The position numbers and the translations under genes are program-made. 64,000 nt of DNA from Marinobacter sp. (GTDB lineage: Bacteria; Pseudomonadota; Gammaproteobacteria; Pseudomonadales; Oleiphilaceae), in NCBI RefSeq assembly GCF_041690615.1, contig NZ_JAWLGY010000004.1, forward strand, positions 117,650 through 181,649, given 5' to 3'. Shown here piece by piece: positions 10,785 through 16,691 of this stretch. Numbering within the stretch: position 1 is the stretch's first letter; each line of letters begins with the position of its first letter. Below the pieces are notes generated by a model. That model saw only the letters and a program-made list of their open reading frames with translations. It ran no database searches and was not told where the DNA came from.

Positions 10785-11318
10785 ATGCCCAAGCCCCACC
10801 AGATCCCGGTCAGACCAACCCCCTGCGTGACCCGGAACATCCTTTTACTGGTACTGGCGCTAGTGCTGACCGGCTGTGCCTCCTCGCCGCAGGTGGCAGA
10901 TCGCCAACAGTCCCCTGTCCCGGTCTACGGCGCACCGGTGGAAAGCGATAATGAACGGGTCAGCAAGCTTCAGGACGTGCTCGACCGATACGAGGGTACC
11001 CCCTATCGCTACGGTGGAACCACGCCCCGGGGGTTCGACTGCTCCGGTTTTATCGGCCAGGCCTACCAGGAAGCGTTCGGCATGGAGGTGCCCCGAACCA
11101 CTTCCGCCATGCTCTCCCACGGTACACCTGTATCGCCGCAGGAGCTGGAACCCGGAGATGTGGTGTTCTTCAACATACGCGGCAAGGAACAGCACGCGGG
11201 TATCTTCATCGGTGGCGATGACTTCATCCATGCGTCCACCTCGGTAGGCGTCACCCGGTCCTCCCTTAATGGCTATTACTGGCGGGACCGCTTCACCCAG
11301 GCCCGGCGGTTCGACTGA
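10785..11318 (+). CDS. NlpC/P60 family lipoprotein (cell-wall endopeptidase)
   Basis: Lipobox LTGC; PYRYGG, GFDCSGF, HAGIFIG and FIHAS catalytic motifs; start uncertain (10740/10785/10827). Confidence 0.9.
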   Translation: MPKPHQIPVRPTPCVTRNILLLVLALVLTGCASSPQVADRQQSPVPVYGAPVESDNERVSKLQDVLDRYEGTPYRYGGTTPRGFDCSGFIGQAYQEAFGMEVPRTTSAMLSHGTPVSPQELEPGDVVFFNIRGKEQHAGIFIGGDDFIHASTSVGVTRSSLNGYYWRDRFTQARRFD

Positions 11319-11892
11319 GCCCAAACAGCTGCGGGTAGCGACGCAGCACCAGGATCACCACCAGGTCATACACTGCGTGCCACACCATCACCAGCTGGAT
11401 ACTGTCGGTAACAGCATAGGCAACCCCGAACACGGCCCCCAATGCCGTCGCCACCAGGAAATAGGCCCGAGACAGGGCATGGGCCAGCCCGAACACGACG
11501 GCCCCCGCCAGAATGCCTGATGCAGTGCCCAGATGCTCCCCGATCCAACCCTGGATCACAGCCCGGAACAACAACTCTTCCCCCACCCCGGCCAGCACGG
11601 CCAGCCCAATCAGAACGGGCCACGACTGGGAACGCACAAAGCGATGCAGGTCGCGGATATGTGTCTGCAAGCTATCTGATGACAACACATCCGTGACCGA
11701 GAGGAGCAACAGCAGCCCATAGGTCAGCAGGCCACCGGCGACGCCCCAGGCAAGATAGCCGGAAACCGGCAAACCGCCAGTAGCAACCGGGATATCAAAC
11801 AGCCAGAGGGGAATCAGCCCCAATAGCACAATGCCGGCCTGGAACAGCAGCCCCACCGCCGGAGTGAATCCACGTCTTCGCTTTGCTGCCAT
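11293..11892 (-). CDS. CPBP/Abi family intramembrane metalloprotease
   Basis: GEELLFRA, FGLAH and HAVYD motifs. Confidence 0.88.
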   Translation of the reverse strand: MAAKRRRGFTPAVGLLFQAGIVLLGLIPLWLFDIPVATGGLPVSGYLAWGVAGGLLTYGLLLLLSVTDVLSSDSLQTHIRDLHRFVRSQSWPVLIGLAVLAGVGEELLFRAVIQGWIGEHLGTASGILAGAVVFGLAHALSRAYFLVATALGAVFGVAYAVTDSIQLVMVWHAVYDLVVILVLRRYPQLFGLSRTAGPG

Positions 11893-12069
11893 CGGTTACT
11901 GCCTTATTCATATATCGTATAAAAACGCTTGCGGGATCGCGATCATGCATTACCGGAAAGACCTGCTCCCGGAGAAACCTGGCCATCACGAAACTGATCA
12001 GAAAATAGACACTCCCGCAGTTTCCGCTAGTATTTAGTCAACAGGCACACAACCAGGGGAGCGTGAGCC

Positions 12070-12678
12070 ATGAACTTGCCAATATCCATCCGCCAACTTT
12101 GCCTGCTACTGATGCTGGGACTGACCTGGCTGCCAACTTCAGCCGTCGGGCAATCGGCAGAGGAGCTACTCAGGGAAATCAACGAGCGCAAGGAACGGAT
12201 CAATCAGTTCCGGGCGCTGCTCAATGACCCGGACCAGACCACCCGGCTGGCGGCACTGGACGTGATGCTCAAATCGGAGGATCCCGCCATGAAGGAGATC
12301 GCCTACGGCGCCGGCTTCAGCAGTGCCGATGATGCCATGCGGGCCCTGGCGCTTAAAGGTAAGTTTCGTGAGCTCACCGTTCTGCCGCTCACTCTGAGCC
12401 CCGAAGATGACCCAACTGAGAACGAGAAGAAAATTCTTCAGCAGTGGGCTGACATCTACCGTTTCCAGTTGAGCGATTTTGATGACTCTACCGGTAGCTT
12501 CACCTTCAGGGGGGGGGACTCCTCAGGCAGGGGGCAGGTGAGCGGCACAGGTATGGAATTCGAAAGCGGGTATTGTCGAGGCCAGTTCACTCTCGGCGAT
12601 GGTGCGTCACTGGTTGGGGAACTGCGGTGCCAGTCCGGCTACCAGGGGCGTTACATCGCAACGGCACGGTTACAATAG
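12070..12678 (+). CDS. Hypothetical secreted protein with a HEAT-like helical segment
   Basis: Signal peptide; LLNDPDQTTRLAAL HEAT-like stretch; beta-rich C-terminus; GGGGAG RBS. Confidence 0.7.
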   Translation: MNLPISIRQLCLLLMLGLTWLPTSAVGQSAEELLREINERKERINQFRALLNDPDQTTRLAALDVMLKSEDPAMKEIAYGAGFSSADDAMRALALKGKFRELTVLPLTLSPEDDPTENEKKILQQWADIYRFQLSDFDDSTGSFTFRGGDSSGRGQVSGTGMEFESGYCRGQFTLGDGASLVGELRCQSGYQGRYIATARLQ

Positions 12679-12682
12679 CGGC

Positions 12683-13780
12683 TCACAGGGGAGGCACCCG
12701 TAAAGCCCCCAGCCCGACAGCGTTTTCGTCGCCCCAATGGGAATGAATTCGCAACATCACCTGCTGGGCCCGCACCGGCGCAAACCGGACAGTACGGGTT
12801 GGTTCGTTCTGAAAGTAGGTACCCGTATACACGGGCATCCAGCCGCCGTCGGCGGTTGTCCTGATCAGCACCTCGAAATCCCTTGGCAAACGTTCTGACG
12901 GCGCCACTCCTTCGCCCACCAGTTCAACCCGGTCAATGGCTACGGCCCGGTCGCCCGCCAGGTCCACAATAACTTCCAGGGGAAACTCTCCTGCCCGCGC
13001 CAGCCAGGGTGCCTTGCCACTCCCCAACAGGTTTGTCGCCCGATGATCGCCGTCCAGCGGTGCGCTGGACCAGCTCAGAACTTCAGTAACAAGGTTGCCT
13101 GACCCGGCCGGGCCAGCCTCCTGAGGTTGCTCGCTGGCAGGCCCACGCTTCGCAGCGGCCAGTCCGAAGAACGGTCTGAGGGTTTCCAGGGTACGGTCAA
13201 ACCGCAAAGCACGCCCATCACCGGTGTCCGGGTCTACGGACATCAGGAGCCCGACAGGCAGGCTCCCCAGCGTTACCAGGCTACCACTCAGCCCCTTGAA
13301 CAACTGATCCTGTTCGCCAACAGGACTGACGCGGATATAGAGGATCCCAACATCGGAAATCAGCACATGTCTCCGGCTGACACTACCATCGGGGTTTACA
13401 GAAACCACCTGAGCGGAACCGGCCGAGGCAAGATGGCTGTCAAGGCTCACCACCTGGTCAATGGCGGTGCCACACTCCGACGTAATCCCTCCGGTAACCC
13501 GCAGAACAGCCAGGTCATAGCCGAACACCTGCAGAAGGTCTCCGTCGCCCCGGGATCGCCCATCGCCGGTACCGACCAACGTCGAGAAAAGACTGTCTCC
13601 AACAACGTGGGCCGGCGTAACGGCGTAGCACTCCCCCAGCCGCCCCATCAGCACCGCCTGGCCCTGCTCTCCGGCATCGATAAAGGCCTGGTCGGGGCCG
13701 GCCGCGGCGGCCGAGGTGGCCAGGGCCAGCCACAACAGCAGGGCAGAAACCGGGGCCGCAGGCAACCTGTTCTCAGCCAT
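12683..13780 (-). CDS. Secreted trypsin-like serine protease fused to an F5/8 type C (discoidin-like) domain
   Basis: Signal peptide; TPAH(58)VV, YD(89)LAVL and KGLS(165)GS in catalytic-triad order; C-terminal VIVDL..PRDFEV..W..F.P..A..V.LRI pattern. Confidence 0.7.
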   Translation of the reverse strand: MAENRLPAAPVSALLLWLALATSAAAAGPDQAFIDAGEQGQAVLMGRLGECYAVTPAHVVGDSLFSTLVGTGDGRSRGDGDLLQVFGYDLAVLRVTGGITSECGTAIDQVVSLDSHLASAGSAQVVSVNPDGSVSRRHVLISDVGILYIRVSPVGEQDQLFKGLSGSLVTLGSLPVGLLMSVDPDTGDGRALRFDRTLETLRPFFGLAAAKRGPASEQPQEAGPAGSGNLVTEVLSWSSAPLDGDHRATNLLGSGKAPWLARAGEFPLEVIVDLAGDRAVAIDRVELVGEGVAPSERLPRDFEVLIRTTADGGWMPVYTGTYFQNEPTRTVRFAPVRAQQVMLRIHSHWGDENAVGLGALRVPPL

Positions 13781-14753
13781 TCTGCCCCTCCCGATTGTGC
13801 GTTCCGATATCACGGCATTTCGTGTAGATTTCGAGGGCGGCAAACAGAAGTGCCCCCGCGGCTGCAAGAAATGCAAGCAGCGGATCGTACAGGAAGCGGG
13901 CCCAGCGATGGGCATGGACCTGGTACCCCGTGCTCCCCAGGCGTTGAACCTGGACATAGCTGGCCGCCCCGTGGGCGATCAATTGCATGGCGTTGACGGC
14001 TTCGGTAAACCGCTCCTGATTGGCGGGCTCTACCCTGATAAACCCTTCCACGACTGCCTGCTCGGGCTCATTTCCGCCAGCATCGTTCCAGAACCGGATG
14101 CGGTCACCCGGGTCCAGCGTTGTATTCCCGGCAACGTAGCGGGTATTCCTGATCCACTGTTGCTCCAGCACGTTGATGCTGCCGGACAATAAAATGCTGT
14201 CGACCCGGGAGGTGACGTCATCACCCACTGTCAGCAAGCCTCGGAAGGGCAGGATCAGGGGGGTAAGCTCCGGCTCAAAGATCACCACGGCCCAATTGCC
14301 AAGTTGTGCCTGTACCGGTTCCGGGGCATCGAGTGTGCCAACCGGACCTTCCGGATTCTGAAGTTTGATACGCAGGGCCTGGATGCCGTGTCGCTGGACC
14401 GTCACTTCGGTGCCCCTGCCGATATTCAGGAACGTGTCCTCCGGCATCAGTATGGCCTCATCCCCGGAAGCCAGCGGATCCGACATCAACCGGCCGCCAC
14501 CCACGAGCCACTGCGAGAAAACCTCATCGGATGTCACCAGTGACAGGGTTTCCGTGACAGCCTGCACCGTGAAAATATTGTCCCGCTTTTCGATCAGGGC
14601 CCCCAGTGCCGCAAGAAGTAAAACGGTCGCCAACAAGGCAGGTATCAAAGGGATATCCCGCCAGAAAGCACTCAAAACCTCCCTCAGCCTGCGAAATGCC
14701 TCACCAGGCGCGCTTCGGGCATCCGAGACCGCAGGGGCATCATCCTTCGCCAT
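13773..14753 (-). CDS. Hypothetical membrane protein: N- and C-terminal TM helices flanking a beta-rich domain
   Basis: 326-aa ORF overlapping both neighbours; two hydrophobic helices. Confidence 0.72.
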   Translation of the reverse strand: MAKDDAPAVSDARSAPGEAFRRLREVLSAFWRDIPLIPALLATVLLLAALGALIEKRDNIFTVQAVTETLSLVTSDEVFSQWLVGGGRLMSDPLASGDEAILMPEDTFLNIGRGTEVTVQRHGIQALRIKLQNPEGPVGTLDAPEPVQAQLGNWAVVIFEPELTPLILPFRGLLTVGDDVTSRVDSILLSGSINVLEQQWIRNTRYVAGNTTLDPGDRIRFWNDAGGNEPEQAVVEGFIRVEPANQERFTEAVNAMQLIAHGAASYVQVQRLGSTGYQVHAHRWARFLYDPLLAFLAAAGALLFAALEIYTKCRDIGTHNREGQNG

Positions 14754-15472
14754 TACAAGGTTCCGTTTCCGGGCAGGTGAACCACCAGGGTGGTCGCCGG
14801 CATCATGCGATCAAACCGACGCCTCATGATCCGGACTTCGAGTAAGCCGTCCTCCGACGTTTCCATCAGCGGCACCGTACAAACCGTGTCATAGCCGGTT
14901 CGGCGGCCCGCTGTGATGGCCTGGCAGGCAATTGTTTGCGGACCCGCAACAAGATTGGTCAATACAGCGAACGTATCGGAACGACCCGAATTGACCAGGA
15001 TATCCAGGGTAGATGGCCTGTCAGCGTCAGTGCCTCTCGCTGCCACCAGTAACGGCCCGTCCGGTACTTGCTGACAATCTCCCTCGTAGCCCAGTATCGC
15101 CAGGTCCCGCGCATCGTAACGGGCAAGCTGCTCCCGATAACGGCTCTGGTACTGCAGGGGCACCAGTGAGGCATCAGCCCCTTTGGGCCAGGTGAAGGTA
15201 TTTTCGGACCAGTAAAGGCCATCCCGGGAAATAACCCGGACGCAGATATCATTGCTGGACCGGGCAGCCGAGGCGTAAAGTGCCAGTGCGTCACTGGCCG
15301 TCGCCGATCCCGCGAGCACCCCCGCCACAACCCGACCACTGACCGAGGCCTCCTCAGTAAAACTTTCCTCAAGCCCATTACCCTTGAGCCGGGCCACTAC
15401 ATCCTGCGCTGCCGTCAGGGAAGGCAACAAAACCAAGGCCACCAAAACCGGCAACCCGTAGCGAATGGTCAT
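14753..15472 (-). CDS. Hypothetical secreted protein with four cysteines
   Basis: Signal peptide MTIRYGLPVLVALVLLPSLTAA; AAGGA RBS; 1-bp overlap with the next gene. Confidence 0.72.
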   Translation of the reverse strand: MTIRYGLPVLVALVLLPSLTAAQDVVARLKGNGLEESFTEEASVSGRVVAGVLAGSATASDALALYASAARSSNDICVRVISRDGLYWSENTFTWPKGADASLVPLQYQSRYREQLARYDARDLAILGYEGDCQQVPDGPLLVAARGTDADRPSTLDILVNSGRSDTFAVLTNLVAGPQTIACQAITAGRRTGYDTVCTVPLMETSEDGLLEVRIMRRRFDRMMPATTLVVHLPGNGTL

Positions 15473-15682
15473 AGCATCAATCCTTTTACCCAGGATTATG
15501 CGGCCTGCCTGTACAACCCGGCCCAGCATCAAACCACGGTCATGTCCATAAATATAGCAGGTCAATGAATGTAGTAGTCCGTTAATACCCCCGGCTCAGA
15601 CAGCCCTGCTAGCCTGACCAGGTTGGTGCTGCATGCACGACAACCATCAGTCAGGGTCCTGAATAATCACAAGGAGAAGACC

Positions 15683-16252
15683 ATGAGCGGGAAAAAGATT
15701 CTGATGATTACCGGTGATTTCACCGAGGACTACGAAACCATGGTGCCTTTCCAGGCACTGCAGGCAGTTGGCCATAGGGTAGAGGCGGTCTGCCCTGACA
15801 AGAAGGCCGGTGACACCGTAGCGACCGCTATCCATGACTTCGAGGGCGACCAGACCTATACCGAGAAGCCGGGCCACCGCTTCGCGCTGACCGCAGATTT
15901 CGATTCCGTTGACCCTGCCAGCTACGATGCCCTGGTGATTCCGGGGGGCCGGGCGCCGGAATACCTGCGCCTGAATGACCGGGTCCTGCAAATGGTGCGG
16001 CACTTCTTTGATGCGGAAAAACCGGTGGCGGCCATATGCCATGGTGCCCAGATACTGGCGGCCGCAGGCGTACTCAAGGGCCGCAAGTGCTCAGCCTACC
16101 CGGCCTGCCAGCCGGAGGTGGAACTTGCAGGCGGCCATTTTGCCGGCCTCGAGGTGAACGAGGCGGTCACCGATGCTAATCTGGTTACAGCACCGGCATG
16201 GCCCGCACACCCGGCCTGGCTGGCCCAGTTCTTCAGACTGCTGGACCGCTGA
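15683..16252 (+). CDS. DJ-1/PfpI family protein
   Basis: [19 protein letters not shown] and AAICHG (nucleophile Cys) motifs. Confidence 0.92.
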
Positions 16253-16310
16253 ACGCCACGCAGATTGAGGGCCGGCCACCGGCCCTCAATCGCTTCCGGG
16301 AGACAGACCC

Positions 16311-16691
16311 ATGTGCAAACTGTTTATCAATGCCGATCCGGATCTCTGGGTCAGCCGCACCCATTCCCTGCGCATTGATGGCATGGCCACCAGCATTCGT
16401 ATGGAAAACACTTTCTGGACAGTGCTGGCGGAACTGGCCGAGCGGGATGGCATGAACGTTCCGCAGCTGATCACCCGCCTGTACCATGAATCCATTGATG
16501 CGGGGCATGATCTGGGCAACTTCACCTCGTTCCTCAGGGTCTGCGCCATGCGCTACCTGGCCCTGCAGCTCAGTGGCGACGTGCCGGCTGACAAGCGGGT
16601 ACCCATTGCGTCCCTGGATGCGAAGCGGATTCTCGACCGGGAGCCAAAGCCGCCCACTCTCGAGGCCGCTGGTGGAACGGCGACACACTGA
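16311..16691 (+). CDS. Ribbon-helix-helix domain protein
   Basis: SLRIDGMATSIRMENTFW..L and NFTSFLRVC pattern. Confidence 0.8.
   Translation: MCKLFINADPDLWVSRTHSLRIDGMATSIRMENTFWTVLAELAERDGMNVPQLITRLYHESIDAGHDLGNFTSFLRVCAMRYLALQLSGDVPADKRVPIASLDAKRILDREPKPPTLEAAGGTATH

Follow-up and report, generated by a model that had tools for sequence, protein, structure and literature searches.

What do four adjoining genes encode when every product carries a signal for export or for the membrane and none can be placed in a described system? This question is raised by a locus in Marinobacter sp. (contig NZ_JAWLGY010000004.1, positions 117,650 to 181,649), a stretch of 64,000 nt that we refer to as the window. 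The locus holds genes A, B and C on one strand and a fourth gene, D, that converges on C; all four were called from an open reading frame (ORF) table together with direct reading of the sequence (Table 1). An earlier annotation of the same DNA, here called the original prediction, had proposed that these genes form a membrane-anchored proteolysis complex. Our best explanation, which builds on sequence comparison and in which we place about even confidence, is that A, B and C would form an inner-membrane-anchored periplasmic protease complex and that D would be its separately transcribed modulator. Since the four genes are kept together in distant bacteria and have no described match, they probably encode a protease machine that has so far gone unstudied.

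Four genes kept together in distant bacteria

The stop codon of A runs into the start codon of B, with 1 bp in common (TAATG), the overlap of B with C is 8 bp long (13773-13780), and A, B and C are translationally coupled. Only 4 bp separate the stop of C (12683-12685) from the stop of D (12676-12678). Three minus-strand genes overlapping by 1 and 8 bp, and a fourth gene converging on them with the stops 4 bp apart, are what the original prediction had described, and the ORF table and the sequence agree with it. The ORF table lists C as a product of 424 amino acids (aa), which is an upstream extension; we count the protein from the ATG after GGGAGGGG.

Using C as the seed, we retrieved 55 homologues, and in all 14 distinct loci around them (13 genome loci and one metagenome contig) A, B and C are followed by a convergent D. 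This order is kept down to about 30% protein identity, and the genome loci belong to Marinobacter species, Thiohalobacter, a Desulfuromonadales metagenome-assembled genome (MAG), Alkalimonas, Idiomarina and Pseudidiomarina. When B is the seed, an A homologue and a C-type protease adjoin each of the six distant B relatives examined, and in five of these six loci a D homologue or a convergent gene of the size of D is present as well. A metagenome scan seeded with D, which used a narrower alignment as the full D alignment is too divergent to serve as a query, gave 32 loci; a convergent C is present in all 29 that have sequence past the D stop, and all four genes are present in all 18 that have full room for them. 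Of three protein word-index searches, two returned close Marinobacter relatives almost exclusively. Clustering of all flanking ORFs shows that only A-D are common to the loci, and the A/B and B/C junctions are overlaps or gaps of at most 37 bp throughout. The original prediction had staked the module on the co-occurrence of homologues, and the same order and orientation indeed recur in every related locus that is long enough. Three independent starting points thus agree that A-D form a system, and the four genes are inherited as one unit.

None of the four proteins scores above threshold in Pfam, NCBIfam, PADLOC or PHROGs, which upholds the earlier statement that none is recognisable as part of a named system. 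At looser cutoffs, PADLOC-DB 2.0 gives no match at E ≤ 1 and PHROGs none at E ≤ 0.1 for any of the four. When whole alignments were scanned against Pfam, the discoidin domain of C and weak HEAT matches in D were all that came up, and a full-text search of the literature found no description of the module. No described system holds relatives of A, B or D, and an assignment of A-D to one by profile search, the outcome that would have spoken against the original prediction, was obtained from none of the libraries.

Protein C: a protease domain joined to a jelly roll

From its N-terminus, C consists of a signal-like segment identified by hydropathy, a protease domain and a discoidin domain. Its AlphaFold2 (AF2) model (predicted local distance difference test, pLDDT, 83.5) has six plus six strands and a C-terminal helix (194-205) in the protease domain. 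Foldseek matches this N-terminal domain to DegS-deltaPDZ, DegQ, HhoA and MamO with probability 1.0 and a target-normalised TM-score (TMt) of 0.6-0.68, and the top structural matches are DegS-deltaPDZ structures. His58, Asp89 and Ser165 are invariant across an alignment of 20 C homologues and follow the triad order His, Asp, Ser; Cys51 and Cys103 are invariant in the same alignment. The triad motifs are also legible in distant relatives. A sequence-profile search of the PDB with C found no protease match.

The C-terminal domain of C, its last 135 residues, has a galactose-binding-domain-like beta-sandwich fold, as indicated by both Foldseek and a PDB profile search. The latter matches the jelly roll to chitobiase CBM32 (E 2.8e-5), and Foldseek matches it to CBM32 modules (TMt 0.73-0.83) and to SUN2 (E 1e-8). 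In Pfam, the C of the window scores 16.9 bits against PF22633, for which the gathering cutoff is 27.8; among the relatives of C, PF22633 matches 12 of 20 and PF00754 matches 4 of 20 (best E 1e-7). No PDZ domain was found in C, and the discoidin/CBM32 jelly roll occupies the position of the HtrA PDZ domain. Because of these fold, triad and domain matches, C is predicted to be a divergent, PDZ-less serine protease of the HtrA fold that bears a discoidin-type jelly roll. The description of C as trypsin-like plus discoidin in the original prediction therefore holds at the level of the fold (AF2 and Foldseek) and of the invariant H58, D89 and S165.

Protein B: a predicted two-TM inner-membrane protein

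Hydropathy analysis places two transmembrane (TM) segments in B, at 32-57 and 287-311. The AF2 model (pLDDT 90.6, predicted TM-score, pTM, 0.83) agrees, with an N-terminal cytoplasmic helix, TM1 at about 36-54, TM2 at about 291-313 and an all-beta periplasmic domain of 18 strands at 59-279. Only short tails, of about 35 and 15 residues and with no domain, are on the cytoplasmic side. A profile search with B recovered 573 clusters at 50% identity with E ≤ 1e-3, 272 of them at E ≤ 1e-10, and exactly two hydrophobic segments are present in 106 of the 128 full-length relatives. B is thus modelled as an inner-membrane protein, N-in and C-in, with a large periplasmic domain, matching the two-TM protein with a large extracytoplasmic domain that had been proposed earlier from sequence.

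Foldseek searches with the B model gave a best E of 7e-3 and TM-scores of at most 0.14 against the PDB, and no match in BFVD. A sequence-profile search of the PDB with B gave no significant match either. The fold is possibly new, as the prediction is confident and nothing solved alike is present in either database. Across 55 diverse relatives, the conserved positions of B are mostly glycines and few conserved polar residues are found; this glycine-dominated conservation fits a scaffold rather than an enzyme.

Gene fusions and a minimal variant

B and C are fused in two unrelated clusters, P0108 (719 aa) and P0147 (758 aa). In P0108, the second TM segment of B is followed by a third, which keeps C periplasmic; P0147 is present in two sequencing runs, where A precedes it and D converges on it. 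A further cluster, P0199 (578 aa), is a fusion of A and B with no TM segment between A and TM1 of B. In a Saprospiraceae (Bacteroidota) locus, A and B accompany a C that has the protease domain only, with legible triad motifs, and there is no D. This variant therefore defines the core as A, B and the protease domain, with the discoidin domain and D as accessories. The B+C fusions and the DegS-like fold of C support the membrane-anchored proteolysis complex of the original prediction; its four-gene module, however, is narrowed to a core of A-B-C (protease domain).

On the Saprospiraceae metagenome contig (L042, 6028-8546), a helical tail stands in place of the discoidin domain of C. Next comes a gene that encodes DUF5666 plus an M48 metallopeptidase, and a sigma gene of the ECF type is close by.

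Proteins A and D

A carries a signal peptide by hydropathy, and four of its cysteines (C77, C133, C183 and C198) are invariant. In the alignment, distant relatives of A keep these four cysteines, a VSG motif, one Asp and little else, which confirms the earlier description of A as a secreted four-cysteine protein. No match to A was found among Pfam, NCBIfam or PDB profiles, including in alignment-based searches.

D also has a signal peptide by hydropathy and is not a lipoprotein. Its N-terminal half is HEAT-like and helical and holds the most conserved stretch of the module, ALLNDPDQ..RLAALD.MLKS.D, while its C-terminal half is beta-rich and has two cysteines, C169 and C187, that are invariant in the alignment. 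Pfam HEAT models give sub-threshold matches only, in 3-5 of 14 members (best E 0.008-0.03), and a PDB profile search with D gave no match. Profile-profile comparison shows no relation of A to D or of A to B. The Sec-type signal peptides and conserved cysteine pairs of A, C and D are as expected for proteins that fold in an oxidising periplasm. The assertion that every product of the locus carries a signal peptide or TM helices is consistent with hydropathy throughout and, for B, with the AF2 model.

A different arrangement is seen on one metagenome contig (L040, 3872-5849), where D appears to be split into a 123-aa HEAT-like product and a 196-aa product for the beta-rich part. C is separated from these pieces of D by two additional small genes, and A and B are fused there as one 578-aa ORF of inconsistent topology.

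Candidate promoters and convergent transcripts

Upstream of D, the element TAGACA-N16-TAGTAT is conserved in five Marinobacter loci that represent two genomic contexts. Five Marinobacter loci, again from two contexts and with different neighbours, all carry CCTGCTATA(T/G)TTA unchanged upstream of A. The element CCTGCTATATTTA reads as an extended -10 (TGnTATATT) and is probably the promoter of an A-B-C operon. The leader of A, about 75 nt down to 15473, has further conserved blocks, GG.T.G..CTG and T.CAGGC...CCGC, and the conserved region upstream of A, leader included, could be an operator or an RNA element. An Rfam search over 11700-15900 found nothing.

At the C/D junction, neither a terminator nor a significant hairpin was detected (folding z-scores -0.75 and -0.22), and by our own start and stop calls the C and D stops are 0-78 bp apart across loci. 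Because of this, the A-B-C and D transcripts probably overlap at their 3' ends.

Table 1 Features of the four-gene locus, in window coordinates.
Feature	Position	Strand	Length (aa)	Description
Gene A	14753-15472	-	239	ORF with AAGGA ribosome-binding site
Gene B	13773-14753	-	326	ORF
Gene C	12683-13780	-	365	Start at the ATG preceded by GGGAGGGG
Gene D	12070-12678	+	202	ORF; convergent on C
C protease domain	13166-13693	-		aa 30-205; two six-stranded beta-barrels
C His58 codon	13607-13609	-		Motif TPAHV
C Asp89 codon	13514-13516	-		Motif DLAVLRV
C Ser165 codon	13286-13288	-		Motif GLSGS
C jelly-roll domain	12686-13093	-		aa 230-365; F5/8 type C / CBM32 / SUN-like
Candidate D promoter, TAGACA-N16-TAGTAT	12006-12033	+		Sigma-70-like; promoter scan and alignment
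Candidate A-B-C promoter element, CCTGCTATATTTA	15549-15561	-		About 80 nt upstream of the A start

A candidate envelope protease complex

In the complex that we propose, B would serve as the scaffold by which C, and probably A, is kept at the inner membrane. C would be the catalytic subunit, its jelly roll taking the role that the PDZ domain has in DegS and binding a glycan or peptide ligand in the envelope by which proteolysis is gated or directed. A may be a disulfide-stabilised accessory or substrate-recruiting subunit. D might dock through its conserved HEAT-like hairpin and act as an inhibitor or an adaptor, or possibly be a substrate. The ligand-targeting or sensing role and the role of D as partner or inhibitor that the original prediction put forward are likewise hypotheses. 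Since D has a candidate promoter of its own and its transcript would overlap that of A-B-C at the 3' end, the cell could set the ratio of D to protease independently. The effect of such a complex would most likely fall within the envelope, because no component has a cytoplasmic output domain.

A bolder version of this proposal, to which we give rather less than even credence, is that A-B-C(-D) is an undescribed family found across several phyla, in which B would be a scaffold of new fold, a SUN/discoidin jelly roll would replace the PDZ domain and read glycans or C-terminal peptides of outer-envelope components, and D would be a dedicated, separately transcribed inhibitor or adaptor. The idea of a jelly-roll read-out is drawn by analogy with DegS-PDZ and SUN-KASH.

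Several points weigh against the proposed complex. The Pfam trypsin models (Trypsin and Trypsin_2) match none of the 20 C members at E ≤ 10, and we infer the proteolytic activity of C from its predicted fold and its residues only. The contacts among A, B, C and D are read from gene linkage and fusion, and the roles given to A and D are guesses. The small number of conserved polar residues in B fits a scaffold without proving one. The A+B fusion P0199 has an awkward topology and, because no TM segment lies between A and B, it may be an assembly or frameshift artefact, so that it counts for little. Finally, the Saprospiraceae variant does without D and the discoidin domain.

Distribution and genomic context

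C is present in 8 of 191 Marinobacter species genomes, and a sample of 400 other genomes from across the phylum holds no B. Named members of the B family come from Gammaproteobacteria, the Desulfuromonadales MAG and Saprospiraceae (Bacteroidota). Within Marinobacter the module occupies at least two genomic contexts, and its flanking genes vary among lineages. This sparse spread and changing context point to gain and loss, without a compositional trace.

Composition had been read differently in the original prediction, where low-GC 60-mers were taken to hint at horizontal acquisition. The 60-mer at 12421 does hold 26 G or C of 60, but the genes themselves are compositionally ordinary. Gene-level GC is 0.58-0.63 and GC at third codon positions (GC3) is 0.66-0.70 for A-D, and neither departs by more than 1.3 standard deviations from the remaining 57 ORF calls in the window (GC3 0.708 +/- 0.052). 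Therefore, A-D show no compositional anomaly, and the hint of horizontal acquisition from composition is not borne out.

In M. segnicrescens (L005), the module lies between a LysE gene and a CPBP gene, and the DJ-1 and RHH genes found beside the window copy are missing. In the window, the DJ-1/PfpI and RHH_4 genes (15623-16691) separate the module from LysE, and they are absent at 3500-4309 of L005. DJ-1, RHH and LysE occur in other arrangements in other Marinobacter genomes, indicating a locally rearranged region. An empty-site comparison anchored on the DJ-1 and CPBP neighbours likewise found the region rearranged in Marinobacter and gave no clean empty site. The CPBP gene, which encodes a Rce1-like intramembrane protease, stands beside D both in the window (11293-11892, minus strand) and in L005 (7901-8497), and in the distant metagenome contig of P0120 a Rce1-like gene is found upstream of A, three genes away; both may be coincidences. 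In the window, the CPBP gene converges with an NlpC/P60 gene (10740-11318, plus strand), and as called their 3' ends overlap by 26 bp.

Other copies have neighbours of other kinds. One (L041, 4527-6712) adjoins a TraI/TrwC relaxase gene, which suggests a plasmid or an integrative and conjugative element, and the copy in Marinomonas sp. ef1 (L043, 1-1279 and 7783-9977) is beside a HipA gene and a Fic gene. The Fic gene of this strain lies between two 69-aa DNA_pol_A fragments and near a full polA. An integrase core domain (rve) and a C-5 DNA methylase are encoded in the flanks of some loci, while in most loci the flanking genes are ordinary metabolic genes. When 57 flanking proteins, drawn from 13 contexts, were tallied by Pfam family, GGDEF and EAL, which occur in 3 contexts, were the sole recurrent neighbours. 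Genes for GGDEF-EAL or CHASE4-GGDEF proteins are directly beside the module in L014-L016 (7824-10640, minus strand), L017 (71-4133, plus strand) and L004 (1605-3185, plus strand), that is, in three unrelated lineages represented by Pseudidiomarina, a Thiohalobacter MAG and a metagenome contig.

Alternative explanations

We considered whether the locus could be a bacteriocin-like toxin and immunity pair, in which C would be an exported protease weapon aimed by its discoidin domain at foreign surfaces, D a periplasmic immunity protein or inhibitor, and A and B helpers in release or maturation. Operons for pore-forming colicins carry the immunity gene on the opposite strand with a promoter of its own, and D is likewise convergent, has its own conserved promoter and always adjoins C. 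The patchy, sparse spread in changing contexts would suit such a pair, as would the copies beside the TraI/TrwC relaxase or HipA and Fic, the rve domain among the flanking genes, and the CPBP/Rce1-like gene that flanks D in the window and in L005 and is found three genes upstream of A in one distant contig. A diffusible toxin is nevertheless disfavoured because the B+C fusions tether the protease to the inner membrane of its own producer. Genes for secretion systems, lysis or release are not among the conserved neighbours, the protease of the Saprospiraceae variant occurs with no D, and neither PADLOC nor PHROGs gives a match; we thus regard this explanation as unlikely. An envelope-level defence, in which, for example, a periplasmic protease would cleave the ejection proteins of phages or surface structures of foreign origin and D would be a decoy or safety catch, could account for the accessory-genome behaviour of the module (8 of 191 Marinobacter species, 0 of 400 other genomes in the phylum, varied insertion contexts) and for the neighbours typical of defence or mobile islands at some loci (HipA, Fic, C-5 DNA methylase, relaxase). 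The same lack of PADLOC and PHROGs matches and the ordinary metabolic neighbours of most loci speak against it, and we know of no defence system that is wholly periplasmic and has this make-up, so that we consider it very improbable.

C could instead provide the input to a signal-transduction pathway, acting like DegS as a site-1 protease on a membrane partner or on B and feeding cyclic di-GMP (c-di-GMP) enzymes or two-component systems encoded elsewhere. A DegS-like fold joined to a sensor-type C-terminal domain would suit this role, and in 3 of 13 independent contexts a GGDEF or GGDEF-EAL gene is no more than three genes away from the module. A LytTR two-component pair is beside one distant copy, and the ECF-type sigma gene is near the Saprospiraceae copy. 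There is also a precedent, in that HtrA proteases are reported to process a two-TM periplasmic domain of the c-di-GMP enzyme PdeC (PMC5897775). Yet a dedicated signalling pathway is disfavoured because no regulator is conserved with the module. By a rough estimate about one GGDEF neighbour is expected by chance in 13 contexts, which three exceed weakly, and the cytoplasmic tails of B are short (about 35 and 15 residues) and domain-less. We accordingly give a signalling role a low probability. That the four genes are neighbours by chance and form no system at all is refuted, to near certainty, by the synteny survey, since order and orientation stay the same in different contexts and at identities as low as about 30%, and given the translational coupling and the gene fusions.

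Comparison with known systems

Regulated proteolysis in the envelope is so far understood through a few systems, namely DegS/RseA, Prc/NlpI, CtpA/LbcA and LapG/LapD. Here, a catalytic domain predicted to be of the HtrA type is paired with three unannotated partner families in a small, self-contained module whose core is defined by fusions and a domain-loss variant. With this module, the role of a non-PDZ sensor on an HtrA protease becomes directly testable.

The closest comparison is with DegS, a member of the HtrA family (peptidase S1C) that acts in the sigma-E pathway of E. coli (DegS-RseA-RseB-RseP). DegS, like the predicted C, is a periplasmic chymotrypsin-fold serine protease at the inner membrane, and both have a C-terminal non-catalytic domain that could gate activity. 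This domain is a PDZ domain in DegS, whereas in C it is a discoidin/CBM32 jelly roll. DegS is anchored by its N-terminal helix, whereas the module would use a separate two-TM protein, B, or a fusion to B. No anti-sigma factor, sigma factor or RseP is conserved near the module, and the only sigma-related gene near any copy, among the flanking genes examined, is that of L042. The DegS system has no sequence counterparts of A or D, and RseB is no more than a loosely analogous counterpart of D in function. C lacks two features that define HtrA proteins, matches to the sequence models and PDZ domains.

The magnetosome proteases MamO and MamE resemble C in having a divergent, membrane-associated domain of HtrA fold, and MamO is among the Foldseek matches. 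They differ in their accessory domains, and there is no magnetosome context here; MamO is catalytically degenerate, whereas C keeps His, Asp and Ser.

Prc-NlpI and CtpA-LbcA pair a periplasmic serine protease with a helical-repeat partner, a role for which the HEAT-like N-terminal half of D offers a parallel. However, Prc and CtpA belong to the S41 tail-specific proteases and work with TPR lipoproteins as adaptors; D, by contrast, is no lipoprotein, and no sequence or fold relation of the module to either pair was found. Ecotin is a small periplasmic protein, rich in beta structure and with disulfides, that inhibits chymotrypsin-fold proteases, and the C-terminal half of D may be its functional analogue. 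Ecotin shows no similarity to D in the PDB profile search and, unlike D, is encoded alone and targets foreign proteases.

Finally, eukaryotic SUN domains and bacterial CBM32 or F5/8 type C modules share the fold of the C-terminal domain of C. CBM32 modules are normally found on glycoside hydrolases and SUN domains on inner-nuclear-membrane proteins, whereas in C this fold is joined to a predicted HtrA-type protease.

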